A stretch of DNA of 51,589 bases, taken from the IMG/VR virus record IMGVR_UViG_3300024974_000002, positions 1-51,589 of that record; one strand, given 5' to 3'. The DNA comes from a virus. Of the stretch, positions 5,445-46,503 are shown piece by piece. The position numbers and the translations under genes were made by a program. The notes below the pieces were generated by a model. The model was not told the origin of the DNA, searched no databases, and saw only the letters and a program-made list of their open reading frames with translations. Numbering within the stretch: the stretch's first letter is position 1; each line of letters starts with the position of its first letter.

Positions 5445-5448
5445 AATT

Positions 5449-7470
5449 ATGGCATATTCTAAAATAACACTAGAATTTATAGCAGTTCCTACTGTTAACG
5501 ATGTGTTCAATATTGGTGAAACTTCTTTGGGTTTAATGCTGAATGAAATATTCAAGGAATCTCGTTTAAGTACGGGTCAGGTTTCTCTTCCTATTTTTGC
5601 TCCTGATGATGGCATACATCCTGATAGGTATTTTGGTTTTGTAAACGTAAACTATAAAAACGCTTTCAATTTAGATTATAATTCAACAGGTCTATTTACT
5701 TTGAGCACTTTAAATGGTCCGGTAAATTCAGGAGTTGGTTTTGTAACTATTGAAGCCAACTTTTCGGGAGCAGTTTTCACAGGCACAAGTACTGATTTTG
5801 TGGATGTAAATATCGAGAATGAAGTGACAGTAACTCCTTTTTCCATTGATGCAATTACATTCACTCCTAAAATTGGCGATGAATCCAGTAGATGCACAAT
5901 TAATATTGCCACAAATCATTTGGCAACTAAATTATTGCAGCCTTTTGTAACTAATCCAAATACGGCAAATCCCATCATTTTTTCGGCATATCGAGCTATG
6001 ACATTCAATGTTGAGGTCGAAGATTCTAATGGATTGAAAGTTTTACAATCAGTTACAACTCCAGCTTATTTGTATCTTGGAAACTTCACATTTGATATTG
6101 TAAATTCACCGAGTGGTGGCACCTTGAATATTTCAAATGTTAATAGTGACGGTTTGGATTTACAATATTCTTTGGACAATGTTACGTGGCAAACATCGCC
6201 AGTTTTTAGCGGTTTGGCAGTTGGATTGTACAGTATTTATATCAAGGACCAATTGGGTTATTTTATCGCAAATGGTTTTGCAGTTACTGAATTCGGCATT
6301 TACACGCCTTATTTCTACATTTCAAAATCAAACTCCTTTCGTTTTGCCAATCGCATATCTTGGGGAGATTCTGCCAATTATAAAACAGATGAAAACACCT
6401 TGAGTTACGAGGTGGATTGTGAAATTCCATATACTGAAATACAACAGTTTCAATCTGCTGACGTGATCACCACGCAATTCAAATCGAATTATGGTAGCAA
6501 TGTGGCCAAGATTATAAAATCCGATTTATCGGAGGTTGATGTTCCGGTGGTAAAGAAATCAAATAACATTGGAGTAAAAGATAAACGCAATGCTTTTAAA
6601 TATGATCTTGGCAACGGTAAAACAGGATTATATTTCATTGCAGGAAACATTTATGATTATACCACGGGATTAGCAACAGACACCTATTTTTTGAATGGTT
6701 CATTGCCGGAATGGGCAATTATAGGCAACTATTTCAAGATAGGTTCTTCTTGGTTCTTGATTGAAGAAATATTCTTTGACGAGGCGAAAAATGCAGATGT
6801 GTTGTCTTTTTCAAACATTTATACCGGTGTTGATGTTTCCGTGATTGCTGCTTCGGTGTTCAACCGTTTCAACTATGAGGTTTATGAATTTGCCATTGAT
6901 ATGGTAGATTATATTGATCAATATATCCAAGTGAGAATAAACAATATCGATGATAATTTCACGGAGATTGTTCATTTAAGCGAGAAAATTTGGTGCAAGG
7001 TAAAACACGAAAATGTGTTGGAAATAAAATATAGTAATTCCAGCAATACGGACATTTTTTATGGCACCGGTATCGAAAATTTGATTCGACAACAATACAC
7101 CTATTTCAAAGGAAAGTCCGACGAAGATAGCGAGGTCCACAAAACCGACACGAATTCCATCTTGCTAAATGCCGATGTTTACGAAGTTGACGAAATTGTT
7201 TTCGAGCCTGTAACCAAGGAAATTTGGAGAAAAATGGTTTTGGCTTTGTCACACGAAAACGTGACCATTAATGGAGTTGGTTACGTAAAGAATGGAAATT
7301 TCAATACTGAAGGACCATTAGAAAGATCAAATCTTTATGTTCTTACAGCTACAATGATCAAAACAGGAAGTGTTTACACCAGCCAGACAAGTGGAGGCAT
7401 GGACTTTGATGGAACAGCAGTTGCAGTGCCAGGATTAATTCAAACAGACAATGGATTTGTGAGTTACTAA
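5449..7470 (+). CDS. Tail/baseplate protein (Tal position), function by synteny only
   Basis: 673-aa ORF 4 nt after the previous stop, in the tail module. No motif recognised. Confidence 0.55.
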   Translation: MAYSKITLEFIAVPTVNDVFNIGETSLGLMLNEIFKESRLSTGQVSLPIFAPDDGIHPDRYFGFVNVNYKNAFNLDYNSTGLFTLSTLNGPVNSGVGFVTIEANFSGAVFTGTSTDFVDVNIENEVTVTPFSIDAITFTPKIGDESSRCTINIATNHLATKLLQPFVTNPNTANPIIFSAYRAMTFNVEVEDSNGLKVLQSVTTPAYLYLGNFTFDIVNSPSGGTLNISNVNSDGLDLQYSLDNVTWQTSPVFSGLAVGLYSIYIKDQLGYFIANGFAVTEFGIYTPYFYISKSNSFRFANRISWGDSANYKTDENTLSYEVDCEIPYTEIQQFQSADVITTQFKSNYGSNVAKIIKSDLSEVDVPVVKKSNNIGVKDKRNAFKYDLGNGKTGLYFIAGNIYDYTTGLATDTYFLNGSLPEWAIIGNYFKIGSSWFLIEEIFFDEAKNADVLSFSNIYTGVDVSVIAASVFNRFNYEVYEFAIDMVDYIDQYIQVRINNIDDNFTEIVHLSEKIWCKVKHENVLEIKYSNSSNTDIFYGTGIENLIRQQYTYFKGKSDEDSEVHKTDTNSILLNADVYEVDEIVFEPVTKEIWRKMVLALSHENVTINGVGYVKNGNFNTEGPLERSNLYVLTATMIKTGSVYTSQTSGGMDFDGTAVAVPGLIQTDNGFVSY

Positions 7471-7620
7471 TTTATATATTTGTACAGTAATAATGATGCA
7501 TTTATTACTGACTTGCGGGTAAAAGTAGTTAAGGTGGAGTTGGCTAATAGCCTAAAAGAAACCGTCTGACAATGAGATAATATCATAATTGCACAAAACG
7601 TAATCCTTACATACGCATCA

Positions 7621-7647
7621 AAAAAGCCTCTAATTAAGAGGCTTTTT
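7621..7647. terminator. Bidirectional intrinsic terminator between convergent genes
   Basis: AAAAAGCCTC-taattaa-GAGGCTTTTT: 10-bp perfect stem with an A-tract and a T-tract on either side. Confidence 0.8.
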
Positions 7648-7667
7648 GTTTTAAATATCGTTGCTGT

Positions 7668-7901
7668 TTATTTTTTTGAAGTAATAGTTTTTTGATAAAC
7701 AATAATTTCTTCTTTTGTTTTGTCATCGATAATATTGATGTGCTTGTGCTCGTGATGATGGTGATGTACGGACTTATCTATAAAAACATTACGGTTTTCT
7801 TTCTCACCGGGAAACAAGAAATTACCAAATGACTTTCCAATACGCCATCCACCGCCAACAAGGACAATGAATAATATCAGGAAAAACAGAAATAGTGCCA
7901 T
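7668..7901 (-). CDS. Small membrane protein with a His-rich tract (moron-like, opposite strand within the tail module)
   Basis: N-terminal hydrophobic helix ALFLFFLILFIVLVGGGW, then HHHHHEHKH. ATG at 7901 is preferred over the GTG at 7907. Its own terminator lies downstream. Confidence 0.55.
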   Translation of the reverse strand: MALFLFFLILFIVLVGGGWRIGKSFGNFLFPGEKENRNVFIDKSVHHHHHEHKHINIIDDKTKEEIIVYQKTITSKK

Positions 7902-7941
7902 AAACACAAAGTTACAAAAAATGAATCTAAACTATTTGTAC

Positions 7942-7991
7942 TTTTCTTATTTAGAATCATTCTAAATAAGAAAATAATTTTTACATTTGTT
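7942..7991 (+). promoter_or_regulatory. 16-bp-arm perfect palindrome plus TAnnTTTG box upstream of the tail fibre gene; near-copy at 45322..45357
   Basis: TTTTCTTATTTAGAAT-C-ATTCTAAATAAGAAAA (7942..7974), followed by TACATTTG. About 33 nt are shared with the region upstream of the scaffold gene. Confidence 0.6.
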
Positions 7992-8011
7992 GGAATATAA
8001 AATTCTAACTA

Positions 8012-11000
8012 ATGAGCTTTCAAACATTTGTAACCGAAAGATTAAAGGCAATTACGGAAACGTTGAATGCCATAGGCACAAATGCCAAGAAAATTGATGA
8101 ATTACCCGTTCAATCTACTTTAGATCCAGCCTCAAAAATACACGTTTCAAAAGGAGGAACTTCCGAGAGTTTGTCGGTTCAAAAAATAATCGATTCAATT
8201 GTAAATAAAACTTACAGCCAATTGTTAGATGTTGGTGACATAACAGTTTCAGGACTTAATGTTATTGTTCCATCGGCTGCAATGTGGGTATATGAAGGCA
8301 TTATTTATCAAACTACAGCTATTACAACCATACCAGAAACATTATGCGCTGCTGGATATTTAAGGAAAGATATTTTGGTGGCCAACCAATCAAACCAAAT
8401 TATTTTAATAAAAGGTGCTGAATCTGAAACAATAAGAATTAAGCCTAATATTCCAATAGGTACTGTTTTCGTCACTGAAATAGATGTTGATGATGCTGTT
8501 ATTGGAACTCCAACACCTCCAGTAATTGGTGATAATTTCATTTCAAAAGTATCACAAAGTCCTAGGAGAAGTTATGATAACGGGATTGTTGATTTGGAAA
8601 ATGAAACGAGAATCATTCTTTACACCTGCACCGAGATAAATTATATCAATCATCTTATTCCTGGTCAAGCGTATGATGGCAGACAATTATTTATAACTAA
8701 TGAAAATGAAGATGAATCAGATATTGTCATTAACAATTTATTCAACCATAAAGGGAATTTTTCGTTTCCAAATGCAGTTCCATTTGTTCTGAAATTCAAG
8801 GAAACTATCCATACTAAATTGTTTTATGATTTTGGCAATAAAGTGACTTATTTATATGTTGGTATAATTCGAAATCAAATTTCAGACATTACTGGATTAA
8901 CAGAAGCATTGGAAGCTATTTCGCCTGATGGACTAGTTAAAGAAGGTATTATATCAATGGCGGGGTTAATCGCCACTATAGCCAATGAGGCTTTTGTGTG
9001 GAGAATAAACCACGTGGAATACACCAATGCCGTTTTTACGGACACCTTGCCAGCCACAACTACTGGATATATGCGTACGGATATTTTTGAAGGTGATGAT
9101 AATGGGGATATATTCAGGAAACAAGGAAATGAAGCCATAGGCGCATCTCTTAAACCATCTGTTACCGTTGGAAGAATAGAATTAGGATCTGTTGACGTTG
9201 AGAATTCAACAGCTAGTACTCCAGTTATTCCTAAACCTAAATGGGCAGTTTCACAACAATTGAGAGATGGTGAAACCGGTTATTCTCCAAGTGAAAATGT
9301 GGTGTATGACGCTTTGGCTTTAAAAGTAGATAAAGATGGTGCGAAAGTTCTTTCCGACAATAACTACACCACTTCAGAAAAAAACAAACTGGCCAGCATC
9401 GATGCCACGCATTATTTACCTCCTCTTCAAACCACGGTGCAGTTATCGGCCTTGCCGCAAGCTGGCATTTCAGACAAAGCAAGGGTTTATGTAGAAAATG
9501 ATTTATCTGATTATTTCTATGATGTTACAGCATCGAGTGGTGACATTGCACCGGATGACCAAACGGGCGGAATTGGCTTTTGGAGAAAAGTAGCTGTAGG
9601 AGGCGAAACGGCTGCAAGCATAAAAACCAAATATGAAAGCAATGCTGATACCAATGCTTTCACCAATGCCTTGAAAGCAAAACTGGACAGTATTACCGAA
9701 ATATTCACGACTGCCTTGAAAACGGGTTATGATGGTGTGGTTACTGGATATACTGCGTTAATGGCAACTGGTTCAAGGCTGATTACTTCTGGAGAAATCA
9801 CGAAACTTAGTAATACAAGTGGAACGAATTCAGGTGATAATTCTACAAATACCCAATATAGCGGATTGGCATCATCGAAACAAGACGTTTTAGTTTCTGG
9901 AACAAATATAAAAACCATAAATGGCGCTTCTATTTTAGGAAGTGGAGATATTACTATTAGTGGTGGCGGTGGTGGCGATATGGTATTGGCATCAAATCAA
10001 ACCGTTTCCGGGTTGAAAATGTTTTTAAATGGAGCATTTGGACTTCGAAATGTAGCCAACACATTCACATCATTTTTTGCTAACTCAAATACTGCTTCAC
10101 GAACTTATACTTTGCAAAACCGAGATGGAACAATTGCTGATTTGACAGATATAGCAGGAGTAAATTCGGGTAAAATGAATACTCCAGCAGGTACAACAAA
10201 TTACTTGTCTAAGTTTTTAACAGCTTCAACGATTGGAGTTTCAAGATTATTTGACAATGGGACATTTTTTGGTATTGGTACATTTGGAGCCCCAACAAAA
10301 GATATTACATTAGGAAATCAAGCCACAAGGGAAATTGGGGTGGAGGAATCTAACAACACAACCATAGGGAGGGATTTAACAATCAGAGCAGGAAGAACAA
10401 TTAATTATATTCCAAATTCAAATTTCAATAGTTTGAACCAACAATTTGGGGGATATGGCGCCACTTCCGATGCTTCAGGGAATGTTTATTTTAAAGCGTA
10501 TGGAGGTACAATCTATAAGCAAACAGGAGGAACAGGAAGTTTTATAAACATTGGAAATACGGGGTTATTGGGTTATGATATAGAAATAGCAGTAAACGGA
10601 GATGTTTATGTACCAGGAAACGGTTACACTCCTGGAAATATTTATATGCAAACCGGAGGAACAGGAAGTTTTAATATTGTTAATACAATTCAAAGAACGT
10701 TTGGTGATGTTAGCGCACACATTAACGGAGATATTTATGTAACGGCAGATAGTGTATTGTTTAGAAGAATAGCTGGAGCCGGGGATTTCGTGGCTGTTAG
10801 TGGCGCACCTGTAAATGTTACTAACGTGGAATGTTCAGCTTCTGGCGATGTTTATGTAACAGGAAACAATAAATTATACAAGCAAACAGGGGCCACAGGA
10901 AGTTTCGTGGATTTATTGCAAACAGCACGAAATTATAAATATATAGCATGTGCCCCAAACGGAAACGTTTATGTGTGGGAAAATAACGGAGATATTTATA

Positions 11001-11410
11001 ATTTGTCGGGAGGCTCAGGAAATTTAATTGCTTTAAATCAAATTATAGGGGGCGTTACAGGTATTACATTCACACCAAATGGAAACGCCTACGTGGTTAC
11101 AGCGAGCGAAATTTATTTCCAGAATAATGACGCATTAGGAACCGCTAATTTGGATGGTGGCATTTTAAAACAAATTGCAGGCACAGGAAAAGGTACGGGT
11201 AAATCTCGTTGGCAAGTATGGACTGGTCAAAAGACCACATCAGGGACAAATATGCAGATTGAAACCCTTAGAGCAAGTTTCGATGAAAACGGAAGATTTA
11301 ATATTGTCACTATGCCTGTATATGCAGATAATGCAACAGCATTATCAGGCGGACTTATTGTGGGTGATTTTTATAGAACTTCTACAGGTTTATTAATGAT
11401 AGTTTACTAA
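8012..11410 (+). CDS. Tail fibre / receptor-binding protein with C-terminal beta-propeller-like repeats
   Basis: 1132 aa, last large ORF of the tail module. Gly-rich linker GGGGGD. Six repeats of the type NGDVYV...IYKQTGGTGSF. Confidence 0.7.
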   Translation: MSFQTFVTERLKAITETLNAIGTNAKKIDELPVQSTLDPASKIHVSKGGTSESLSVQKIIDSIVNKTYSQLLDVGDITVSGLNVIVPSAAMWVYEGIIYQTTAITTIPETLCAAGYLRKDILVANQSNQIILIKGAESETIRIKPNIPIGTVFVTEIDVDDAVIGTPTPPVIGDNFISKVSQSPRRSYDNGIVDLENETRIILYTCTEINYINHLIPGQAYDGRQLFITNENEDESDIVINNLFNHKGNFSFPNAVPFVLKFKETIHTKLFYDFGNKVTYLYVGIIRNQISDITGLTEALEAISPDGLVKEGIISMAGLIATIANEAFVWRINHVEYTNAVFTDTLPATTTGYMRTDIFEGDDNGDIFRKQGNEAIGASLKPSVTVGRIELGSVDVENSTASTPVIPKPKWAVSQQLRDGETGYSPSENVVYDALALKVDKDGAKVLSDNNYTTSEKNKLASIDATHYLPPLQTTVQLSALPQAGISDKARVYVENDLSDYFYDVTASSGDIAPDDQTGGIGFWRKVAVGGETAASIKTKYESNADTNAFTNALKAKLDSITEIFTTALKTGYDGVVTGYTALMATGSRLITSGEITKLSNTSGTNSGDNSTNTQYSGLASSKQDVLVSGTNIKTINGASILGSGDITISGGGGGDMVLASNQTVSGLKMFLNGAFGLRNVANTFTSFFANSNTASRTYTLQNRDGTIADLTDIAGVNSGKMNTPAGTTNYLSKFLTASTIGVSRLFDNGTFFGIGTFGAPTKDITLGNQATREIGVEESNNTTIGRDLTIRAGRTINYIPNSNFNSLNQQFGGYGATSDASGNVYFKAYGGTIYKQTGGTGSFINIGNTGLLGYDIEIAVNGDVYVPGNGYTPGNIYMQTGGTGSFNIVNTIQRTFGDVSAHINGDIYVTADSVLFRRIAGAGDFVAVSGAPVNVTNVECSASGDVYVTGNNKLYKQTGATGSFVDLLQTARNYKYIACAPNGNVYVWENNGDIYNLSGGSGNLIALNQIIGGVTGITFTPNGNAYVVTASEIYFQNNDALGTANLDGGILKQIAGTGKGTGKSRWQVWTGQKTTSGTNMQIETLRASFDENGRFNIVTMPVYADNATALSGGLIVGDFYRTSTGLLMIVY
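10475..11130 (+). repeat. Intragenic tandem repeats (about 40-45 codons, 6 copies) in the tail fibre gene
   Basis: SGNVYF..IYKQTGGTGSFINIGN / NGDVYV..IYMQTGGTGSFNIVN / NGDIYV..FRRIAGAGDFVAVSG / SGDVYV..LYKQTGATGSFVDLLQ / NGNVYV..IYNLSGGSGNLIALNQ / NGNAYV..IYFQ. DNA-level similarity is seen at 10521 and 10651, for example. Confidence 0.75.
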
Positions 11411-11421
11411 ATATTTATACT

Positions 11422-11790
11422 ATGATACAAACAAAAGAAATCATCACTTACGGTGACAGAAGCGAAAAGCAAGGCAAAATTTTAATCGAAGTTAGGCCGT
11501 TAGAAATGGAAAAAACAGGAATCAAATATTTGGTTGTTGATTGGGATATTTCATTGAACCCACCCGAGCCGATTTCATCGAAAGAGATATTTTATTTTAA
11601 TGAAAAAATAGACCAATTAGATGTTTATTTAGAAAGTACCTATGATTTTACAGGTATGACAAAATCAGAGAAAGAGTGGACGAAAGTAAAATTAGCGTTG
11701 ATGTTGGACACACAAACCAATTTATTGGCAAACGGCAAAACAATCAGAGGATTAAATCCAAACGATTGGGAATTTACACCGGAAGAATAA
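11422..11790 (+). CDS. Hypothetical protein
   Basis: 122-aa ORF co-oriented in the operon. Its stop overlaps the next ATG. Confidence 0.6.
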   Translation: MIQTKEIITYGDRSEKQGKILIEVRPLEMEKTGIKYLVVDWDISLNPPEPISSKEIFYFNEKIDQLDVYLESTYDFTGMTKSEKEWTKVKLALMLDTQTNLLANGKTIRGLNPNDWEFTPEE

Positions 11791-12257
11791 TGCTAGGCTC
11801 TAATTCTAACTATTTCAGGCAACCAAAAGAAATCCTTGTTGACTCCAGAGACAAAGTGTTTAGGCTTTTGGATTTGAAAGGCTATAGCTTTAATGAAATA
11901 GCTGTTTACTTAAAAGCATTCGATTATTTCTGTGAAAAAGTAGATCAGTTTGACGGAGCCACCATAGTAAAAGATTTGCAGGATTTACCAAGATTAGATC
12001 TTGATGCCATGTTACATGACTTTCATTATTTGAACTATAATGTAGGAGTTAATTTCATTACAAAATGGCAGGCTGATTGGATTTATGCCAAAGGAAACGA
12101 GCGAAAGGGTAAAGGTTCTTACAGTTCTTTTTCAAGATTCATCGGATTGACTTTTATAGGAATTGGATTTGTTCCTTATGCTTATTTAAAACAAGGAAAG
12201 ATTTCAATTGTTCAGAAAAAACAATTTTTAGAAGAGTATAAATTATTAATAAAATAA
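11790..12257 (+). CDS. Hypothetical protein (start trimmed to ATG 11790)
   Basis: ATG 11790 overlaps the upstream stop (ATAATG). The track start 11676 would overlap the previous gene by 115 nt. Confidence 0.6.
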   Translation: MLGSNSNYFRQPKEILVDSRDKVFRLLDLKGYSFNEIAVYLKAFDYFCEKVDQFDGATIVKDLQDLPRLDLDAMLHDFHYLNYNVGVNFITKWQADWIYAKGNERKGKGSYSSFSRFIGLTFIGIGFVPYAYLKQGKISIVQKKQFLEEYKLLIK

Positions 12258-12260
12258 CGC

Positions 12261-12779
12261 ATGAAAAAAATACTTTGCCACATCATTCTATTAGCTGACA
12301 ATCGGCCATCATTTATTGAAAAAATCACTTATTTTTTTAGTGTAATAGCAACTTTAACACCAGTGGCTTTTGTGCTTGATGGACTTAATTTATGGTTTAA
12401 AACCAATCAGCAGTTTTCGTCATTCGTGCTTATTTGTTTGCTTGTAAATTTATTCGTTGGCGCTAGATTTCATTATAAGATGAATACTTTTTCTTGGAAA
12501 CAGCTATTAACACGAAACTCCGAGATGTGGGTAGTTTTGATTATAGTATATGCTTTACTTGAAATGTTAAGGCTTACGGCTGGTAATAATTTTGTAGGTG
12601 AAGGGTTTAAAATCATGATACAAGTAATGACACTTTTGTACCCAATATCAAAAGCTTTAAAAAATATTTATATCCTTTCTAATAAGCAATTCCCTCCGGC
12701 TTTTATAATGGATAAGATTTACAACTTTGAGAAAACAGGTGACATAAAGGATTTGTTTGATACTGATAAAAAAGAGTAG
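12261..12779 (+). CDS. Holin-like multi-pass membrane protein
   Basis: Several hydrophobic segments (FFSVIATLTPVAFVL, FSSFVLICLLVNLFVG, MWVVLIIVYALL, IMIQVMTLLYPI). Lies immediately upstream of the muramidase. Confidence 0.5.
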   Translation: MKKILCHIILLADNRPSFIEKITYFFSVIATLTPVAFVLDGLNLWFKTNQQFSSFVLICLLVNLFVGARFHYKMNTFSWKQLLTRNSEMWVVLIIVYALLEMLRLTAGNNFVGEGFKIMIQVMTLLYPISKALKNIYILSNKQFPPAFIMDKIYNFEKTGDIKDLFDTDKKE

Positions 12780-12781
12780 CC

Positions 12782-13324
12782 ATGAAAAAAATAACACTCG
12801 AAGAAATACATTCGTTATCCAAAGAATTTGGAGTGCCAGTTTCAAGAATTCAAGCCATTAAGCACGTAGAAAGTGGAGGAATTGGTTTTGATAAAAAAAC
12901 GGGTAAGATAATCATCCAGTTTGAGCCAGTTTGGTTCAAAAGAAAATCACCATATACACCTTCAGGGAAATGGTCACTTAACGGAGTTGAGCGTCAGGCT
13001 CAAGAGTGGATTGCTTTTAATGATGCTTTCGCAAAAAATCCTAATGCAGCGATGGAAGCTACATCTATAGGAATTATGCAAGTCATGGGTTTTCATTGGA
13101 AATTATTAGGTTTTGTTTCTGTTGGGGCTATGTGGGATTATGCCAAAGAATCAGAACACAACCAATTAAGATTGGGCTTACTTTTCATCAAGTCAAACAA
13201 AAAAATGTTTGATGCATTGGTAAAAGGCGCGTGGAAAGTTGTGGCTTACTATTATAATGGAGAAAACTATTGGATTTTACAATATGATTTAAAATTGGCA
13301 GCAGCCGAAAAACTATACTTATGA
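12782..13324 (+). CDS. Endolysin, N-acetylmuramidase family (PF11860/DUF3380-like)
   Basis: IQAIKHVESGGIGF, IIIQFEPVWFKR, ATSIGIMQVMGFHWKLLGF and YYYNGENY..QYDLKLAAA match my recollection of the family pattern (AVxEVESxGxGF, ILFERHxF, SWGLFQIMGFN, YNGPxY..YDxKLAAAY). Confidence 0.85.
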   Translation: MKKITLEEIHSLSKEFGVPVSRIQAIKHVESGGIGFDKKTGKIIIQFEPVWFKRKSPYTPSGKWSLNGVERQAQEWIAFNDAFAKNPNAAMEATSIGIMQVMGFHWKLLGFVSVGAMWDYAKESEHNQLRLGLLFIKSNKKMFDALVKGAWKVVAYYYNGENYWILQYDLKLAAAEKLYL

Positions 13325-14835: not shown

Positions 14836-16050
14836 TTATAGATTTAAAAATTGAATGTTTATTTTTTTCAAAGCTTCGTTTTTTCGTTTATTTCTACCAA
14901 CCAAATATACAGTTTCTGTAACATCGGTTTCGTGTGATGCCATTCCTTTTGATAAATTCAATGCAGCATCTGAAGCTCTGTCCAGTTCATCCAGAAACAA
15001 ATGTTTCAAAGCATAGAAATCAGCAGTCACATTATATTTGTCTTTTACCAATCGCTTCCATCGCAAGCCAATTTGTCGTGGCTGTGTTGGAATTAATGAT
15101 GGTTGCAATCCTCTTGTAAACAAATAATCATCGTCATCGGTACATTCTCCTATTATTTCGGTCCAAAATTTTAAAACGTTTGGCAAAATAACCTTAATTA
15201 CTTCCTTGCTAACGCTACCTTTCAAAATAGTAACTTTATATTCCTGCTTGGCCAGATTAACATCTTTCTTTTGAACTCGAAACAATTCAGCGCTTCTGCC
15301 ACCGGAATGAAAGAATATCATACCATATCTGAAAAAAGTATAATTTTCAGTTTTTAGAATCTTGAATATTTTATTCAGTTCGTCAACTTCAAGGGTTTCA
15401 CGAATTTTCTTTACTGTTTTTTTCTTTTTGATGTCCTTAATAGGATTGTGAAAAACCATTCTTTTTTCTACCAAGTCTGAAAGTACAATAGATAAATGAG
15501 TAAGGTACTTATTGTATTCGTTTGGTGTCAAATCCAAAGGATCTAACAAATCACGTATATGGCCACTGTGAATTTCACAGATAGGAAAGTCAAGTTTCAA
15601 TGCAATAGCCGATTTATCCACCTTAGCGACAATTCTTCTAATCTCTTTTGTTACACCAGGAGAAACCGTTAATAAAGGATATGCAATTTTAAGAGCTTTA
15701 ACAAAATTTAATTTTGGATGTAGCTTTTCTGCTTCCGGTTCCGGTTCTGCAATTGGTTTTACTACATATTTTTTAGTAATCGGGTTGTAACCTTTCTCTT
15801 CAAATAGTTTAGGTATCTCTTTTAGCCATGTTTCAATCACGGCTTTACGATCTTCCAAAGTTCGGAACCGGTTTAATTTTCTTCTGAAAAGAAACCCTTT
15901 TGGGTATTTCTCTTTGAACAATGGATCGTAGAATTTGCATTCTATACGCCAATCAAGCTTTAAAGATTTCTGAGAAGTCAATGTTTTCCAGTTCTCCGGA
16001 TGTACCCATAGGTCAGAGTACGCACAATCGAATAATAAATTTGTTGCCAT
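14836..16050 (-). CDS. int: Tyrosine-type site-specific integrase
   Basis: 404 aa next to attP. C-terminal catalytic region has GGRSAEL (Arg), ILKGSVSKE (Lys), ALKHLF and ASHETDVTETVYL (His...Tyr). Confidence 0.8.
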   Translation of the reverse strand: MATNLLFDCAYSDLWVHPENWKTLTSQKSLKLDWRIECKFYDPLFKEKYPKGFLFRRKLNRFRTLEDRKAVIETWLKEIPKLFEEKGYNPITKKYVVKPIAEPEPEAEKLHPKLNFVKALKIAYPLLTVSPGVTKEIRRIVAKVDKSAIALKLDFPICEIHSGHIRDLLDPLDLTPNEYNKYLTHLSIVLSDLVEKRMVFHNPIKDIKKKKTVKKIRETLEVDELNKIFKILKTENYTFFRYGMIFFHSGGRSAELFRVQKKDVNLAKQEYKVTILKGSVSKEVIKVILPNVLKFWTEIIGECTDDDDYLFTRGLQPSLIPTQPRQIGLRWKRLVKDKYNVTADFYALKHLFLDELDRASDAALNLSKGMASHETDVTETVYLVGRNKRKNEALKKINIQFLNL

Positions 16051-23181: not shown

Positions 23182-23781
23182 ATGCACCGACCAAAACCAA
23201 TCAACGAGCGAAAAGCAAACCAAACATTTATACTTACTTTAATTTTTGTCATCGCTTTAATTTGCGGAATTGCCAATGCACAACCAAAGGACCAGGAACA
23301 TTATTTGGCTTTTTCTACCGGATTAGACATTAAAAATGCCATAATTGGCAGCAAGGCAACTGGTGATAAACCCGCACTTGATTTATTGTATCAATTTGCA
23401 ATGGTTTCCCAAAACATCGAAGTGAACATAGGATATGAGCGATTCAATGCCATTTACTTTGACAAATTCACATTTGGAGTTGGCTATCATTTCCCACTTT
23501 ATGGAAGGATTGGAAACACGGTTATCAAGACCGTTCTTATTCCTAGTATAGAGCCAACTCTTATTGGTAGATGGGGTAACGAATGGCAAACTACAAGCTC
23601 ACATCTTTCCATCGGTGGTAACTTATCTCTAAGATGGCATTTAAGCGATAAAACAGCCTTGGAATTTCTTTCCAACTTTTTGCCACGAACCGATTTATAC
23701 TCCAGGTACCCAGAACTTCATTCGAGCGTTCCGATTGTTCCTAGTTATTATTTAAAGATAATTTATAAAATACAAAGATAA
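23182..23781 (+). CDS. Outer-membrane beta-barrel-like protein (moron)
   Basis: Signal peptide FILTLIFVIALICGIANAQ. Alternating hydrophobic beta-strand pattern (FTFGVGYHF, LSIGGNLSLRWHL, YYLKIIYKI). Confidence 0.5.
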   Translation: MHRPKPINERKANQTFILTLIFVIALICGIANAQPKDQEHYLAFSTGLDIKNAIIGSKATGDKPALDLLYQFAMVSQNIEVNIGYERFNAIYFDKFTFGVGYHFPLYGRIGNTVIKTVLIPSIEPTLIGRWGNEWQTTSSHLSIGGNLSLRWHLSDKTALEFLSNFLPRTDLYSRYPELHSSVPIVPSYYLKIIYKIQR

Positions 23782-24056
23782 TGGCTAAAAAAATCAAAAA
23801 AAAGAGTCACGTCACTTACAACAAAAAATCATTTTTGGCTCCTGAAAGCATTCATTCAATGGCTGCAATTTTCACCAAAATATATCCTGATGGAATAGCC
23901 ATTATTAGAATATCAGATTGCAATCAAACCATCAAGCTTTGGAATGATTTGAATGACAAAGATCAAGTCAAAGAAATGGTTACAAAAATCACAAACATCC
24001 AAAATGCTTTGGATGAGTTTAAAAAAGAAGTAGAAATAAAATTAAACAAAATTTAA
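23781..24056 (+). CDS. Hypothetical protein
   Basis: 91 aa, ATAATG overlap with the upstream gene. Confidence 0.55.
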   Translation: MAKKIKKKSHVTYNKKSFLAPESIHSMAAIFTKIYPDGIAIIRISDCNQTIKLWNDLNDKDQVKEMVTKITNIQNALDEFKKEVEIKLNKI

Positions 24057-24058
24057 AA

Positions 24059-24535
24059 ATGGAAACATTACAAATTGACAAAGCGAATGCTTTAAAAGCC
24101 CACGAAGAGGCAAGTATCAAAGGGAAATCATTATTGGAAAATCTATTTGGCAAAAAAGTTTTTCTAAAAGATGTAAAAGACAGAATCAAAAATTTTGATG
24201 ATGTTTTGGCCGAAAACGGAATTTCAAGAGAAGATTTTGAAACATCCTGCGAAGGATTGGAACCAGATGAAATTGCCTATCGAATGGCAAAATTAGTATG
24301 TCTAGCATTCAATGAGGGATGGTTGCCAGATTGGACCAATAGCAATGAGTATAAGTATGCGCCTTATTTCAGAATGGGTTCTTCTTCGGGCGTCGGTTTT
24401 TCGTACTACGGCTACGATCGTTGGGATACGAATTCGACTGTCGGCTCGCGCCTTTGCTTTAAATCTTCTGATTTGGCAAAACATGCTGGACAACTTTTTG
24501 AACAAGAAATTTATAAACCACTTTTTACAATTTAA
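24059..24535 (+). CDS. DGR target protein 1 (158 aa)
   Basis: Contains VR1. Paralogue of the next ORF: WLPDWTNSNEYKYAPYFRMGSSSGVGFSYYGYDRWDTNSTVGSRLCF. Confidence 0.85.
   Translation: METLQIDKANALKAHEEASIKGKSLLENLFGKKVFLKDVKDRIKNFDDVLAENGISREDFETSCEGLEPDEIAYRMAKLVCLAFNEGWLPDWTNSNEYKYAPYFRMGSSSGVGFSYYGYDRWDTNSTVGSRLCFKSSDLAKHAGQLFEQEIYKPLFTI
24378..24453 (+). repeat. DGR variable repeat VR1
   Basis: 76-nt alignment to TR. 10 mismatches, all at TR adenines (hand count). Confidence 0.9.
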
Positions 24536-24536
24536 A

Positions 24537-24917
24537 ATGAACTACACAGAAATCAAAACATTTGAAGATGCTTGCATTGCCATTGGACTTCAACAGCCGG
24601 AATTAGTAATTCCAGATTTTTTAAGCTTTCCATCAACTGATAGAGAAGCTATGATTGCACACGCAAAATTAGTGATAATCGCCAAAGCCATAAATGGTGA
24701 CTGGGTACCAGACTGGACAGATTCAAGCCAATGGAAATATTACCCTTGGTTTGAGATGGGTTCTTCTTCGGGCGTCGGTTTTTCGTTCGGCGGCGACGGT
24801 GCTTGGTATTCGGATTCGGTTGTCGGCTCGCGCCTTTGCTTTGAAACCAGAGAAAAAGCAAAGTATGTAGGAACACAATTTGAAGAATTGTACAAAATCT
24901 ATTTTGTAAAAGAATAG
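24537..24917 (+). CDS. DGR target protein 2 (126 aa; start trimmed to ATG 24537)
   Basis: Contains VR2: WVPDWTDSSQWKYYPWFEMGSSSGVGFSFGGDGAWYSDSVVGSRLCF. The track ORF 24312.. is an out-of-frame upstream extension over target 1. Confidence 0.85.
   Translation: MNYTEIKTFEDACIAIGLQQPELVIPDFLSFPSTDREAMIAHAKLVIIAKAINGDWVPDWTDSSQWKYYPWFEMGSSSGVGFSFGGDGAWYSDSVVGSRLCFETREKAKYVGTQFEELYKIYFVKE
24760..24835 (+). repeat. DGR variable repeat VR2
   Basis: 76-nt alignment to TR. 17 mismatches, 16 at TR adenines plus one T->G (hand count). Confidence 0.9.
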
Positions 24918-24948
24918 CAAATTAAGGTTGTGTGGTGTCGTTGCTGTA

Positions 24949-25024
24949 GTTCTTCTTCAGGCGTCAGTTTTTCGTACAACGACTACGATAATTGGAATAC
25001 GAATTCGAATGTCAGCTCGCACCT
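24949..25024 (+). repeat. DGR template repeat (TR), non-coding, immediately upstream of the RT
   Basis: 19 adenines in 76 nt. In the VR frame it reads SSSGVSFSYNDYDNWNTNSNVSSH. Homology to the VRs breaks at 25025 (CCTGAGCTAA vs CCTTTGCTTT). Confidence 0.9.
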
Positions 25025-25061: not shown

Positions 25062-26093
25062 ATGGCAAAAAAACACAAATTAATAGGTTCGTTAGTAATG
25101 AAAATGAAAGCGAACCAATCAAAGCAAAGTATGAAACGATTCAAAAACATATACCAACAAATTATATCACCGGAAAACTTAATTCTTGCGGAAGCGAAAG
25201 CACGCAAAGGCAAAGCCAAACAATATGGTGTTAAGGTTTTTGATAAAAATCCACATGGAAACCTTGCGGAACTTCATAATATTTTGCTTGAAAAAAATTA
25301 CAAAACATCAGAATACACCACTTTCAAAATCTTTGAACCTAAGGAAAGGCTGGTTTTTAGATTGCCATACTTTCCTGATCGCATTACCCATCACGCTGTT
25401 ATGAATGTTCTGGAACCAATATTTACCAAATTATTCACGGCTGATACTTATAGTTGTATCAAAGGAAGAGGAATTCACGGAGCTGCCAATAATCTAAAAA
25501 AAGCATTGAAGGACCAGGAGAATACAAAGTACTGTTTGAAATTAGATATTGTCAAGTTCTATCCAAATGTAGATCATGAGGTTCTAAAGCAACTATTTAG
25601 AAAAAAGTTTAAAGACCAGGATTTATTTTGGTTGTTGGATGAAATTATTGATAGCGCTGATGGTTTGCCAATCGGCAATTATTTAAGCCAATATTTTGCA
25701 AACTATTACCTGACCTATTTTGACCATTGGATAAAAGAAAACAAGGAAGTAAAATATTACTTCAGGTATGCTGACGATATTATTATTCTATCGAACAACA
25801 AACCACATCTTCACGAGCTGTTGGCAGAAATAAAAACCTATTTGAATGATAATCTAAAGCTTCAGGTAAAAGGGAATTATCAAATATTTCCAGTTGAAGC
25901 CCGTGGAATTGATTTCGTGGGTTATAAGTTCTACCATACGCACACAATGCTTAGGAAATCAATCAAAAAAAGATTTGCCAAAGCAATATCAAAAACAAAA
26001 AACAAAGCAACGATAGCCGCTTATTTCGGATGGGCTAAACATTGCAATTCAAAACATTTATTAAAAAAATTAATACCAAATGAACAATTTTAA
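25062..26093 (+). CDS. DGR reverse transcriptase (alternative start ATG 25131)
   Basis: LPIGNYLSQYFANYYL ([LIV]GxxxSQ DGR signature), YADDIIILS (YxDD), and an N-terminus MKRFKNIYQQIISPENLILAEAKARKGK typical of DGR RTs. Confidence 0.9.
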   Translation: MAKKHKLIGSLVMKMKANQSKQSMKRFKNIYQQIISPENLILAEAKARKGKAKQYGVKVFDKNPHGNLAELHNILLEKNYKTSEYTTFKIFEPKERLVFRLPYFPDRITHHAVMNVLEPIFTKLFTADTYSCIKGRGIHGAANNLKKALKDQENTKYCLKLDIVKFYPNVDHEVLKQLFRKKFKDQDLFWLLDEIIDSADGLPIGNYLSQYFANYYLTYFDHWIKENKEVKYYFRYADDIIILSNNKPHLHELLAEIKTYLNDNLKLQVKGNYQIFPVEARGIDFVGYKFYHTHTMLRKSIKKRFAKAISKTKNKATIAAYFGWAKHCNSKHLLKKLIPNEQF

Positions 26094-26376
26094 AGATTTC
26101 GATATAAAACCTGTGATAACAAATTTTGTAGGCGAAAAAATCAAGATAAACAATTTGCTTGACAAAGAAATAATTGTAGTTGATTTCAAAGTACTTCCAT
26201 CAAACTATGAAGGAAAAGGAGATAGACTTGACATACAAATTGAATATCGTGATGAACCACGAGTGGTTTTTACTGGAGGTAAATATCTAATTCAAACCAT
26301 AGAAAAAGTACCAAAAGACAAGTTCCCATTCAAAACAAAAATTTGCAAAAATGGTGAGCATTTAGAATTCACATAA
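26080..26376 (+). CDS. Hypothetical protein translationally coupled to the RT (14-nt overlap)
   Basis: 98 aa. Appears beta-rich rather than a helical bundle by eye. Confidence 0.55.
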   Translation: MNNFKDFDIKPVITNFVGEKIKINNLLDKEIIVVDFKVLPSNYEGKGDRLDIQIEYRDEPRVVFTGGKYLIQTIEKVPKDKFPFKTKICKNGEHLEFT

Positions 26377-41717: not shown

Positions 41718-43202
41718 TTGCTAACAGATGCTGAAATATTGGAATTAGAAACTCTTTTGAAAGAAAGGGACATCGACATTTCCAGAAATCACCTCAAAGT
41801 AATTGACGATGATACCAATCCAAACTACAAACTGCTGCAGGAATCTATTGTTGATCAAAAATACAACGACAAGGACGAGTTAGTTAGTGGGAAAAGAGGT
41901 TGTGCATTAGAAGGTTCTTCTCGTTCCGGCAAAACATGGTCCGGCGTGGACATCATTATTTGGCTTTGTCTTTATGTAGAAACCAAATGTACCATCAACA
42001 TTTATCGTGCTACTTATAACGAATTCAAAACGACTTTATACGATGATTTCAAGCGTAGGCTAGATGATTTTGGACTACCAAATAAATTCCACGATGCCGA
42101 AGAGATTAAAAGTTTCAAAATAGGTCAAAATACAATCTATTTTCTTGGTGACGGTAAACACGGTGGAGGTTGCGACTATGCTTTTTTTAATGAAATGATG
42201 TTTATTAAGAACTCAGTATTTGACCAAGTAGAAATGCGATGCCGTAAATTTTGGTGGGCAGATTACAACCCATCGTTTACGGAACACTGGTTTTTTGACA
42301 AAGTACTTTCCCGTCCGGATGTTGGTTTCTTAAGAACCACATTTCTTGACAATCTCACGCATTTGTCGGTCCAAGAAAAGAACAAAATTAAATCTTGGGA
42401 ACCTTGGAAGCCAGGATCATATATTGTAAAAGATGATGAAATCCATTGTTACAATAAAGCAACTGGCAAGGTCGAGCCTATAACCAAAATCAACCAACCA
42501 CCTCCACATCTTACCAACATAGCGAACGGAACTGCCGACGACTTTATGTGGAAGGTTTACGGACTTGGATTGCGAGGTGCTATGAAAGGCGTGATATTTA
42601 ATCACGTCACCTGGATTGAGCCAAATGAATTTCCAGACATACAACACATTTATACCAATGACTTTGGATTTACAACGGATCCAAACGCATTAAACAGATA
42701 TGCCGAAGACGAACATAATATTTGGATTGAGCCATTGATTTATACGCCAATTGAAACGGCTGCAGAATTAGTAGGTATTTTAGAATCTTTTGGAGTAAGG
42801 CAAAATTCCAGTGATTATGATGACGATGGAGATTTAATCATTTGTGATAGTTCCGATAAATACACGGGAGAAAACAAAGGAACTGTTGAAATGGTGCGAT
42901 CATTAAAAAAAGACCATAGATACAATGCCAAAAAAGTAAGCAAAACAAAAGGTGTTATGTATTGGCTTAACTCGATGAAGACTAAAAAAATACACATCGT
43001 AAAAAACCATTTGTATGCCCAAATTAAAAAAGAAAAAGAGAATTATAAGCTGAAAGAAATTCAAGGAATTTGTATCAACCAGCCAATTGATTCGTGGAAT
43101 CACTTTTGGGATTCTGGAAGATATGGCCACATGGCGCATAATAGCCAAGGCGAGACCGTATTTAAAATGACAGAGGAACAAATCAGAAAACTAAATTATT
43201 AA
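41718..43202 (+). CDS. terL: Terminase large subunit (TTG start; no in-frame ATG before the Walker A)
   Basis: Walker A-like GCALEGSSRSGKTWSG. 494 aa, immediately upstream of the portal. Confidence 0.8.
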   Translation: MLTDAEILELETLLKERDIDISRNHLKVIDDDTNPNYKLLQESIVDQKYNDKDELVSGKRGCALEGSSRSGKTWSGVDIIIWLCLYVETKCTINIYRATYNEFKTTLYDDFKRRLDDFGLPNKFHDAEEIKSFKIGQNTIYFLGDGKHGGGCDYAFFNEMMFIKNSVFDQVEMRCRKFWWADYNPSFTEHWFFDKVLSRPDVGFLRTTFLDNLTHLSVQEKNKIKSWEPWKPGSYIVKDDEIHCYNKATGKVEPITKINQPPPHLTNIANGTADDFMWKVYGLGLRGAMKGVIFNHVTWIEPNEFPDIQHIYTNDFGFTTDPNALNRYAEDEHNIWIEPLIYTPIETAAELVGILESFGVRQNSSDYDDDGDLIICDSSDKYTGENKGTVEMVRSLKKDHRYNAKKVSKTKGVMYWLNSMKTKKIHIVKNHLYAQIKKEKENYKLKEIQGICINQPIDSWNHFWDSGRYGHMAHNSQGETVFKMTEEQIRKLNY

Positions 43203-43214
43203 TAAATTATTGTT

Positions 43215-44627
43215 ATGGAAGAAATAATCGCATTATTACAATCAGACCCGGCAAAAGCAATTGAGACCATCAAGGCTCAAAGTACCAAGAAAGCATCTGA
43301 CATTGATAGTTACGTCAAGGAGTACAAGGATTTTGACCGAAACCAACGAGAAGGACAACTCGAAAAGATACAGTTAGACAAAACACTTGATGCCGGAAAA
43401 GTATCCAAAATGGTTAAAATTTACATTAACCACGCCCAAAATATTGTCGAAACAATGGCAGCATTTACCATCGGTAAACCCATCACTTTAATTCCATCCG
43501 AAGAAAGCAATTTGGCCAAGTTGGTCAAACAAATTTGGCGAGTAAACCGCATCGATTCAAAACTGCTTGATGCCACGATCATCAAGTTTTCGCAAACCCA
43601 AGTCGCAATGCAATTCTACATTGTAGATGCTGGAGAAACTTCGCTTTTGAATAAAGTGTTGTCATACTTGAAACTTAAAACACAGATCAAGGAAATAAAA
43701 GCCAAAGTATTGGATAATACCAAGGGAACGATGACACCATATTTTGATGCCACAGGCGATATGTTGTTGTTTATGTGGGAATACAAAGCCAAGGAAGGCG
43801 ACAAAGAGGTGGCCAATGTACAGATTTGGAATGAAATTAATATGTTTCATTTCAAAGACGGTGTTTTATTTGGAAAACCTTTGCTCCACGGCTTCGACAG
43901 GATTCCAGTTGTTTACGATTCACAGGATGAACCGCTATGGTACACCGTTAAATCGCCTATAGATAGACACGAAGTTGCCTTGTCAAAATTGGGTGATTCC
44001 AATGATTATTCTGGGCATCCTATTTTATTGACCGAGGGGGAAGGTATATCTATGCCTTCGAAATCAGAAAGCGGTAAGCATTTTAACATTCCAATTAAAT
44101 TAGGAGGCGAAGATGGCAAAACACTTATCAAAGGCGATGTTCGTTTTCTTGAAGCCCAAACAGCACCGGAAAGCAACAAACTGGAATTGGATAAACTAGA
44201 AGACACCATCGCTTACGGTTCTGGAGTTCCCAACCTATCATTGGAAAAACTGAAATCATTGGGTAACGTGGCCGAAAAAACAGTAAAGCTAATGTTTATC
44301 GCCACCGACATCAAAGCCGCTTTGAAGCAATCAGCAACAAGAACATTTGTCGAAAGATGTATCAATATCATTGTTTCGGGAGTGACAAAAACTACCAATA
44401 CTACCATGGCGGCTGAGGGTAAAGCCTTGTATTACGACATTCAATTCAATTCTATTTTGCCGTCGGATATTGCCGAAACGGTAACCTATCTATCCAATGC
44501 CGTTGCAGGTAAATTTGTGAGCCAAAAAACAGCTATGGGAATAATTGATTTAGTAGATGACCACGAAGCGGAATTGGCACAAATAGCATTAGAAAACAAA
44601 GTGGGTATTGTAGTGCCTACAGCTTAA
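43215..44627 (+). CDS. Portal protein
   Basis: 470 aa, directly downstream of terL. Size and position are typical of SPP1-type portals. Confidence 0.7.
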   Translation: MEEIIALLQSDPAKAIETIKAQSTKKASDIDSYVKEYKDFDRNQREGQLEKIQLDKTLDAGKVSKMVKIYINHAQNIVETMAAFTIGKPITLIPSEESNLAKLVKQIWRVNRIDSKLLDATIIKFSQTQVAMQFYIVDAGETSLLNKVLSYLKLKTQIKEIKAKVLDNTKGTMTPYFDATGDMLLFMWEYKAKEGDKEVANVQIWNEINMFHFKDGVLFGKPLLHGFDRIPVVYDSQDEPLWYTVKSPIDRHEVALSKLGDSNDYSGHPILLTEGEGISMPSKSESGKHFNIPIKLGGEDGKTLIKGDVRFLEAQTAPESNKLELDKLEDTIAYGSGVPNLSLEKLKSLGNVAEKTVKLMFIATDIKAALKQSATRTFVERCINIIVSGVTKTTNTTMAAEGKALYYDIQFNSILPSDIAETVTYLSNAVAGKFVSQKTAMGIIDLVDDHEAELAQIALENKVGIVVPTA

Positions 44628-44630
44628 ATT

Positions 44631-44957
44631 ATGAAATCAAAAACAGTTTCAATACCCATATATTTTGGTAAACTTACGATCATAAGTACTGATGATTTTA
44701 AAGAAGTGAACAAGATTTACAAAACAAAAGCCAAAAATAAGCTTTATGATGCCGTTGTGTTTGAAACTCTTGGAAGAGGAGAATATGTAGTAGCGATAAA
44801 AGTAGTTGATTGGTCTATAATTGCCCACGAAACAGTACACTTGGTAAACGATATTTTTTTAAAGTGCGGAGTGCAACTGGACCGAGTAAATGATGAACCA
44901 CAGGCTTATTTAACAGGATGGATAGTAAATGAAATCGATAAATTTTTAAAAGAATAA
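44631..44957 (+). CDS. Small protein with an HExxH motif
   Basis: IIAHETVHLVNDIF. 108 aa, lies after the portal. Confidence 0.5.
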   Translation: MKSKTVSIPIYFGKLTIISTDDFKEVNKIYKTKAKNKLYDAVVFETLGRGEYVVAIKVVDWSIIAHETVHLVNDIFLKCGVQLDRVNDEPQAYLTGWIVNEIDKFLKE

Positions 44958-45018
44958 TAATAAATAAAGCGGAACCCGAAAAGCTAATGAGTAGGGAAAA
45001 TATCAAAAATATATAATT

Positions 45019-45246
45019 ATGTCACAAGTAAGAGCAAAATTCGTGTGTAATCAAATTACAGATAGTCCAGAGTATAAGCAAAAATTAGTTTCATTAACCC
45101 CAGTAGTTTCCGGAAGTGAAGAAAATAAATCATTTGCAAAATACACACCAGCTGGAAGCGTTTCATTAAATATTAGTGATGAAACGGAAGCGGCCAATTT
45201 CTTCGAACAAGGTAAAGAATACTACCTTGACTTCACAGAAGCATAA
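45019..45246 (+). CDS. Hypothetical protein
   Basis: 75 aa, followed by a terminator. Confidence 0.55.
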   Translation: MSQVRAKFVCNQITDSPEYKQKLVSLTPVVSGSEENKSFAKYTPAGSVSLNISDETEAANFFEQGKEYYLDFTEA

Positions 45247-45267
45247 AATTGGAAACATTTCAATATT

Positions 45268-45297
45268 AAAACCACTCTTTTTTTGGGTGGTTTTTTT
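45268..45297 (+). terminator. Intrinsic terminator
   Basis: AAACCAC-loop-GTGGTTT, followed by a T-run. Confidence 0.65.
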
Positions 45298-45321
45298 ATG
45301 ATTAAATTTATTATTTATAAT

Positions 45322-45357
45322 GATTCTAAATAAGAAAATAATTTTATTACATTTGTT
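45322..45357 (+). promoter_or_regulatory. Late promoter/operator, near-copy of 7958..7991
   Basis: GATTCTAAATAAGAAAATAATTTTATTACATTTGTT. Imperfect palindrome TTATTTATAAT-G-ATTCTAAATAA. TACATTTG box. Confidence 0.6.
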
Positions 45358-45388
45358 CTTTATAAATCAACAATTTAAAACAATTATC

Positions 45389-46060: not shown

Positions 46061-46091
46061 AAACAATTATTAACAAAAAACATTAGAAATT

Positions 46092-46493
46092 ATGTCTGAC
46101 GTAAAAGGAGATTTATCTAACACACCAATCCAAGTTGATACCACTTTGGATGTTGTGATCATTAAAAAGGTAGACCACGACATACCGGGAGGAAAAACTC
46201 TCGATGTTACAGGTGTTACCGAAGAAGTATTGAAGGCTGGTAGAGTTATCATTATTGAAACGGCTACCGGAAAACTAAAACCGTTGGCTATTTCTGCAGG
46301 TGCTTATGCTGCATTGCCATCTGGACATACCTACAAAGGTATTTTGATCGCTACCATTCTAACAAAAAGACCTTTTGCGTCTGTTATGTTGGCCGGAGAC
46401 GTTAATGAAGGAGCTGTAATCAATTATGAATTGCCAGCTATTCCTGCAGGAGCAAAAACAGCTCTTACTCACATTTTATTCACTCAAGATTAA
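46092..46493 (+). CDS. Head-associated protein (decoration-like by position)
   Basis: 133 aa, between the scaffold and major capsid genes. Confidence 0.4.
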   Translation: MSDVKGDLSNTPIQVDTTLDVVIIKKVDHDIPGGKTLDVTGVTEEVLKAGRVIIIETATGKLKPLAISAGAYAALPSGHTYKGILIATILTKRPFASVMLAGDVNEGAVINYELPAIPAGAKTALTHILFTQD

Positions 46494-46503
46494 TTATTAA
46501 ATT

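Follow-up and report, generated by a model that had tools for sequence, protein, structure and literature searches.

The diversity-generating retroelements (DGRs) of phages have been explained almost entirely by tropism switching through tail fibres. Here we analyse a DGR cassette with two small target genes in the IMG/VR virus record IMGVR_UViG_3300024974_000002, of which positions 1 to 51,589 (51,589 nucleotides) are hereafter called the window. Among the closest described systems, Roux et al. (2021) sorted DGR targets into 24 main clusters and entered the cluster PC_00007 as "Phage_other", that is, non-structural or unknown. Only 1.6% of the PC_00007 members were predicted to be structural by PhANNs, and the table of that survey contains adjacent primary and secondary PC_00007 targets beside the reverse transcriptase (RT) gene. 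Benler et al. (2021) described a second target of Quimbyvirus (ORF 80/84) as "non-structural", lying near methyltransferases and a tRNA ligase in an island that they called defence-related. By profile comparison, the two targets of the window belong to the PC_00007 / phrog_11581 family; they represent a catalogued but unstudied kind of target, not a new type of system. The cassette is an active-type DGR, and we consider it plausible but unproven, with a probability of roughly 0.45, that its targets act as intracellular binders of a variable partner.

Two tandem targets and their template

The two targets are adjacent paralogues with 42% identity. TG1 (24059..24535, plus strand) encodes the long form of 158 aa, which exhibits an extra N-terminal helical segment (residues 1-37), and TG2 (24537..24917, plus strand) encodes the short form of 126 aa. 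The core of the template repeat (TR) is found on the same strand at 24949..25024, within the 144 nt that separate TG2 from the RT gene. It aligns without gaps with a variable repeat (VR) in each target: VR1 at 24378..24453 (+; TG1 codons 107-132) and VR2 at 24760..24835 (+; TG2 codons 75-100). An earlier sequence-only reading of this DNA had placed both VRs about 25-30 codons before the stops of adjacent 158-aa and 126-aa open reading frames (ORFs); in agreement, both end 26 codons before the stop. All 10 mismatches between VR1 and TR fall at TR adenines, as do 16 of the 17 mismatches of VR2, the remaining one being a change of T24984 to G. The counts of diverged adenine sites given earlier (16 for VR2, 10 for VR1) were thus exact. 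A search of the whole window, on both strands, with the TR region revealed no third VR. Therefore the tail-fibre gene (8012..11410), 12.6 kb away, is not a target, in line with the earlier statements that this gene has no VR and lies more than 12 kb from the targets.

The RT gene (25062..26093, +) encodes a protein of 343 aa with matches to RVT_1 (E-value = 5.9e-20) and phrog_1423 (4.5e-128). Its translation contains IGNYLSQ and YADD, corresponding to the DGR-type motifs [I/L]GxxxSQ and YADD. The nearest relatives (50-58% identity) are RTs of crAss-like phages, which are annotated as DGR RTs, and the scores against group II intron, Drt and retron RTs are all below the curated cut-offs. Taken with the TR/VR pattern, the mechanism of an active-type DGR is well supported.

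Of the 20 TR adenines in the scored stretch 24946-25023, 19 occupy codon positions 1-2, and they are almost confined to AAY-type codons. Four A-to-G changes are common to both VRs, and replace Ser, Ser and His of the TR with the Gly, Gly and Arg of the GVGFS and VGSRLCF motifs. These three residues are conserved at 90% or more in the family, with one homologue (P0027) retaining a TR-like VSSHL. Between the fixed motifs GSSSGVGFS and VGSRLCF lies a freely varying block of about 12 residues (xxxxxxWxxxSx). Close homologues of TG1 (P0001-P0004) differ at 4-9 of 13 residues in the variable block, versus 4-6 of 145 elsewhere. The TR/VR pattern is thus the trace left by TR copies, mutagenised at adenines, that were written into the two tandem paralogues, and this block is what it recodes.

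The same pattern is observed in related loci. In 65 of the 77 related viral loci we identified TR/VR pairs that differ specifically at adenines, with one to three VRs per locus; 1830 mismatches fall at TR adenines versus 102 at other sites, far beyond chance. Nearly all of these VRs lie within an ORF of the family, and nearly all of the latter end 60-95 nt before the stop. Two loci exhibit additional arrangements: in one, a third family member with a VR lies some 6 kb downstream of the cassette (L075 9111-9698), and in another a VR is found downstream of the 98-aa ORF described below, outside any called family ORF (L046 5360-5436).

The last 15 nt or so of the TR (GTCAGCTCGCACC) differ from the GC-rich ends of the VRs (GTCGGCTCGCGCC), resembling the IMH*/IMH pair (initiation of mutagenic homing). 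A 9-bp perfect inverted repeat (CTTTGCTTT/AAAGCAAAG, with a 12-nt loop) occupies 24834..24863 (+) and starts at the TR/VR homology boundary of VR2; VR1 is followed at the corresponding position (about 24453-24480) by an interrupted 11-bp stem. Both stem-loops are within coding sequence and begin exactly where the TR/VR homology ends, the stronger stem accompanying the more diverged VR. Similar stems occur at the same boundary in many related loci, with weak z-scores and a control comparison that is not rigorous. They are possible candidates for DGR target-recognition hairpins.

A further conserved member of the cassette is a 98-aa ORF (26080..26376, +) overlapping the stop of the RT gene. Most related loci (most of L002-L166) have it behind the RT. 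In the archaeal virus ANMV-1, an ORF that also encodes 98 aa comes immediately after the RT (L086 3992-4288); it is 35% identical (E-value = 8e-14) and carries no accessory-gene label in the original ANMV-1 paper. The 98-aa ORF of the window also weakly matches the C-terminal extension of a crAss RT; searches of Pfam, PDB, PADLOC and NCBIfam gave no match. No cassette ORF exhibits an Avd-like match in Pfam or NCBIfam. The lack of Avd is compatible with membership in the DGRs, since about a quarter of the catalogued DGRs are without it (Wu et al. 2018). The 98-aa ORF may thus be a candidate, as yet undescribed, accessory factor in cassettes without Avd, and its conservation may bear on how such DGRs work. 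A basic 91-aa ORF (23781..24056) was also considered as a substitute for Avd and was rejected, being confined to the closest relatives.

Family size, recurrence and genomic position

TG1 and TG2 match phrog_11581 with E-values of 4.7e-20 and 3.6e-29, respectively. This family has no assigned function and no structural label. We found 506 homologues of TG1, and the profile search for the family that had been proposed as a check, run over 1.84 billion representative proteins, returned at least 4169 clusters (50% identity) at E-values up to 1e-3. Among the top 150 representatives listed, nearly all are 150-165 aa long, and 15 are two-domain fusions (P0122-P0170). Six isolate genomes with related loci (IMG 2609460187, 2627853621, 2582581873, 2585428184, 2630968489 and 2636415439) appear in the table of Roux et al. 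(2021) under PC_00007, DGR clade 1, "viral" and FCB, with VR positions of 0.74-0.82; REF_DGR_[t122] is given for five of the six, and the RT length is about 317-320 aa in five and 415 aa in the sixth. The family was therefore already catalogued. Given this and its size, the rarity and novelty that the sequence-only reading implied for small early targets are not supported; they are further undercut by homologues in Bacteroides phages, which are second DGR targets.

The cassette, in the order target (1-5 copies), TR, RT and 98-aa ORF, is found in most of about 150 related loci in Bacteroidota phages and prophages. The order is almost invariant among 80 IMG/VR loci, where the target is present in one to three copies, the long form first and the short form last. 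The 79 loci from species-representative genomes are distributed over Flavobacteriales, Chitinophagales, Sphingobacteriales, Cytophagales and Bacteroidales, with tandem arrays of up to five copies (for example L117 and L125). Of the 72 genome loci with room for an RT, at least 58 have one next to the targets. Linkage to a DGR is nearly universal in the family, which resides mainly in temperate phages and prophages.

The gene map of the window, obtained by PHROG scans, confirms the earlier placement of the targets between recT/MBL and replication genes. The early string on the plus strand contains an SbcC-like ATPase (from 19054), a RecT-like gene (from 21295) and a metallo-beta-lactamase (MBL) hydrolase (from 22439), the last followed by two small ORFs and then the targets. 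NinB (from 26386) comes after the 98-aa ORF, and is followed on the same strand by a helicase (from 27811), a replication initiator (from 28895) and a sliding clamp (from 32864). Genes from 22439 to 28959 abut or overlap head-to-tail on one strand, and no convincing plus-strand terminator was found from 22420 to 29476. Because the genes (RecT-MBL-...-NinB-helicase) are so packed without a convincing terminator, early co-transcription is probable: the targets probably share the transcript of the early genes, and their products are probably synthesised in the infected cell.

A comparable placement is seen in unrelated genomes. In a Mu-like prophage of Flavobacterium gilvum, the cassette comes after a repressor, a transposase, a MuB-like ATPase and DUF3164, and before convergent Mu F and portal genes; in an Epilithonimonas prophage it lies between YqaJ/HNH genes and helicase/methylase genes. 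We took a PHROG census of 150 upstream and 150 downstream ORFs, upstream meaning within 6 kb in the first 20 or so of 52 dereplicated loci. Upstream, the census is dominated by transposase, transposition ATPase (MuB), primase/helicase, SbcC, RecT, HNH and repressor families; downstream, by replication or head-morphogenesis genes, many of which, in Mu-like loci, are encoded on the other strand. None of the 25 most frequent PHROG families listed for either flank is a tail-fibre family. Placement is always on the early-gene side, in lambdoid-like, Mu-like and other backbones. The picture of small, soluble, duplicated early-operon targets, far from an undiversified tail fibre, is thus supported and is repeated in unrelated backbones. 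A specific link of the cassette to RecT-type recombinases was considered and rejected, as Mu-like loci carry transposase and MuB genes at that place.

The cassette moves as a unit between unrelated phage backbones. One may ask whether the targets are simply landing pads with little function of their own, carried along by a mobile DGR cassette, their diversity being largely neutral. This mobility, the copy number of 1 to 5 and the loss of the RT from some arrays would agree with such a view. It is, however, very improbable given that more than 4000 clusters share a strongly conserved scaffold and that the TR adenines avoid third codon positions. The replacement of the template Ser, Ser and His by Gly, Gly and Arg in both VRs, at residues conserved at 90% or more, further implies that the protein comes under selection each time retrohoming has occurred.

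Homologues of the targets are present in the cultured phages Versailles, BI-TP1 and PV4-TP1, so that the role of the family is directly testable. (A match in BT-TP2 is fragmentary, lying where a linear record ends.) The family aligns over its full length with Versailles WAK79127 (hhalign probability 99.3%, E-value = 1e-20) and with LoVEphage QVQ57199 (99.6%, 1e-24). In Versailles the gene order is SbcC-RecT-MBL-NinB-[target]-replisome organiser, and the target is 44 kb from the RT; the neighbours of QVQ57199 encode methyltransferases, radical-SAM enzymes and RtcB (tRNA ligase). In both phages, a single TR matches one VR in a tail protein and another in the family member. In Versailles the two VRs carry 12 and 15 mismatches at A sites and a single change elsewhere in each, and the LoVEphage family member exhibits 19 A-site mismatches and no others. 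Judged by its described neighbourhood, the second Quimbyvirus target is probably a homologue of the family; LoVEphage is likened to Quimbyvirus by this description alone. The LoVEphage RT (L172 7565-9108, minus strand) is annotated only as fragments, yet the TR/VR differences are cleanly A-specific. This fits the frameshifted Quimbyvirus RT reported by Benler et al.

The LoVEphage copy, lying among methyltransferases, radical-SAM enzymes and RtcB in the type of island that Benler et al. call defence-related, raises a different possibility, namely that the proteins are expressed by the prophage and serve the lysogen as hypervariable sensors or exclusion factors against incoming phages. The prevalence of the family in temperate phages and prophages would be expected under this scheme, and cytoplasmic DGR targets are known in bacteria (PMC10907252). 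We regard it as improbable. The genes belong to the lytic early operon and lie downstream of the region under repressor control; they form no moron-like unit of their own. They exhibit neither an effector domain nor a PADLOC match, and their only conserved partners are the RT and the 98-aa ORF.

Scaffold and site of action of the targets

Both proteins are acidic, with isoelectric points of 5.13 (TG1) and 4.65 (TG2). The maximum Kyte-Doolittle value over 19-residue windows is 0.69 for TG1 and 1.08 for TG2, indicating no hydrophobic segment; the earlier statement that neither protein has a signal peptide or transmembrane helix is borne out to the extent of this hydropathy test. Hydrophobic segments are likewise lacking in 265 of 270 family members. 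Scans of TG1 and TG2 against Pfam, NCBIfam and PADLOC gave no match.

Structure prediction by AlphaFold2, followed by Foldseek, had been suggested as a test for a C-type lectin (CLec) fold. The models are helical, with a mean predicted local distance difference test (pLDDT) score of 77.5 for TG1 and of 84 for TG2 (132 sequences; predicted template modelling score 0.79). Confidence is good in the helices and in the conserved W-P-D-W / KYxPWF stretch, and lowest in the VR loop, which has a pLDDT below 50 in both. Against the PDB, with the VR loop at this low confidence, Foldseek returned a best E-value of 3.4 for one model and zero matches for TG2; thus no CLec match was obtained, while the diversified loop itself stays poorly modelled. 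Against BFVD the only matches are uncharacterised phage proteins, some of them from crAss-like viruses. The family profile gave only spurious helical matches against the PDB, and the Versailles homologue alone gave none. The missing Pfam and PDB matches were at one point considered as evidence against a CLec fold. This argument was dropped, because the same tests fail on positive controls: bona fide tail targets also lack a CLec Pfam match, and the profile of one tail-target family (A6) has no PDB match. Sequence tests for CLec are therefore uninformative here. The fold may be that of a CLec-like domain in much reduced form, or else a helical scaffold of another kind.

Profile-profile comparison with the crAss-type tail-target family gave an alignment of 45 columns around the VR only (SGxGFS...GSRLCF; probability 87.8%, E-value = 3e-6), and nothing aligns upstream of the VR segment. 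The part common to the small targets and the tail-protein targets is thus the VR segment alone, about 26-45 aa; one family member (P0258) carries the longer crAss-type VR. As only the VR segment aligns, the diversified segment has the appearance of a transferable module, carried by different scaffolds. In the small targets, a VR segment of the same origin as that of the tail proteins would have been grafted onto a different, mainly helical scaffold.

This homology lends weight to the view that the small targets are virion-associated accessory adhesins or receptor-binding tips, produced abundantly enough to enter the particle even though their genes lie elsewhere, and the element an ordinary tropism-switching DGR whose cassette happens to lie in the early region. 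Elsewhere the RT lineage adjoins tail genes, Versailles and LoVEphage diversify a tail protein and a family member from one TR, and Roux et al. allow for an uncharacterised structural role. The Versailles homologue is annotated as "tail protein" by HHpred against PHROGs; that label, however, probably reflects the shared VR segment only. In about 150 loci the targets never adjoin tail genes and are instead co-oriented and tightly packed with early genes. They exhibit no recognisable anchor domain, phrog_11581 bears no structural label, and the PhANNs structural calls concern only 1.6% of PC_00007. On balance, a virion adhesin appears somewhat unlikely, though it is the most serious of the competing explanations.

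We favour an intracellular role because the targets keep their early-operon position in unrelated backbones, appear soluble and exhibit no anchor or structural signature, and because of the low structural-prediction rate of PC_00007 and the DNA-modification/repair neighbourhood in gut phages. The proteins would be made early within the infected cell, alongside the recombination and replication genes, and the hypervariable loop would bind a polymorphic partner there, for example a host defence protein, a takeover target or a competing element. The long and short chains probably work together, since their order is conserved and single-chain two-domain fusions exist. The more elaborate idea of a soluble two-chain early binder with one diversified loop per chain, constituting an antibody-like counter-defence library that stands ready in the phage population to neutralise polymorphic host defence proteins or rival elements across Bacteroidota phages, is doubtful.

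Several points weigh against an intracellular site of action. Gene position proves neither the timing of expression nor absence from virions, and a sigma-70 promoter scan, not being applicable to Bacteroidota, gave an uninformative, chance-level result. Neither the targets nor the Bacteroides-phage homologues match defence or anti-defence families in PADLOC and NCBIfam, a search that included no dedicated anti-defence library. The notion of a non-CLec scaffold is insecure because the pLDDT of the VR loop is below 50, and a C-type lectin domain was reported for the second Quimbyvirus target by Benler et al. (2021). Clusters such as PC_00007 may comprise uncharacterised structural proteins according to Roux et al. 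(2021). The TR shared by a tail protein and a family member in Versailles and LoVEphage could mean that both bind the same class of extracellular ligand. In addition, tandem copies with no RT within 8 kb are found in about eight genome loci (e.g. L104 and L136).

Thousands of clusters make up the family in Bacteroidota phages, among them cultured phages of Bacteroides. It is diversified as heavily as tail-fibre targets, yet it is encoded in early operons and looks soluble. If the targets do act inside the cell, DGRs would also serve the phage-host conflict after entry, and the family would represent a compact natural scaffold for a hypervariable loop. Its value lies in being a large and tractable family whose role is to be settled, not in being the first of its kind.

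The phage genome and comparison with described elements

The window exhibits an exact terminal repeat of 127 nt (1-127 = 51463-51589). This repeat is an assembly overlap, and the genome is circular or circularly permuted with a length of about 51,462 bp. In addition to the early string, PHROG matches identify a tape measure protein, virion structural proteins, the tail fibre, a holin and an endolysin at 31..13324, an integrase at 14836..16050 (minus strand), and terminase, portal and major capsid protein genes at 41718..47796. The host is probably Flavobacterium, because Flavobacterium sp. ZT3R17 carries a 93%-identical target in the same cassette. A megablast search of the phage collection with 24 kb of the window gave zero matches. 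The phage is temperate and of Flavobacterium type, and is new as a complete genome carrying PC_00007-type targets.

Other features of the window were also noted. Directly 5' of the cassette, in the early operon, is a basic 199-aa ORF (23182-23781, +) whose N-terminal segment is strongly hydrophobic and has the look of a signal peptide or membrane anchor; it has no family match and is shared only by the closest relatives. Three direct repeats of about 31 nt each (ATAATTGTTTTTA...) lie at 17916-17999, in a divergent intergenic region beside a minus-strand ORF (17165-17917), and look like operators of a lysis-lysogeny switch. A 123-nt Rfam tRNA match of 43.6 bits at 39839-39961 (+), for which ARAGORN makes no call, may represent a tRNA interrupted by an intron or insert. 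An Rfam DUF805b RNA motif (44966-44997, +; 39.8 bits, above the gathering score) is located just 3' of a portal-region ORF (44631-44957).

The cassette resembles the DGR of Bordetella phage BPP-1 (mtd-avd-TR-brt) in its A-specific TR-to-VR differences, the position of the VR in the 3' part of the target, the GC-rich IMH-like end and possibly the downstream hairpin. It differs in having two targets that are not tail fibres and belong to an early operon, with about 26 codons after the VR, and in having the 98-aa ORF after the RT instead of Avd. The nearest RT relatives are in crAss-like phages (cr55_1, crAssphage LMMB), where the VR segment is homologous and has a GSRLCF-type end, and the 98-aa ORF after the RT is shared with ANMV-1. 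In contrast, the tail module of the crAss-like phages and of ANMV-1 encodes their targets, which are tail proteins 446-572 aa long, and outside the VR segment they do not resemble the small targets. For DGR variation of intracellular conflict proteins, the cytoplasmic sensors of multicellular bacteria (PMC10907252) provide a precedent. These are cellular, large, multi-domain proteins with effector/NTPase modules; the comparison is one of description, homology not being expected.

The closest likeness is to the PC_00007 targets of Roux et al., which are of the same protein family and also occur as adjacent pairs beside the RT; that survey is a catalogue only, and the gene context, paralogue pair, scaffold and accessory ORF are described in the present analysis. 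The Versailles and LoVEphage targets are likewise homologous over their full length, A-mutagenised from a TR, and placed among early recombination/replication or DNA-modification genes. They are, however, single copies 15-44 kb from the RT, share their TR with a tail protein and have about 30 additional residues inserted ahead of the VR, whereas in the Flavobacterium-type cassette two tandem copies abutting the TR and RT are the only targets.

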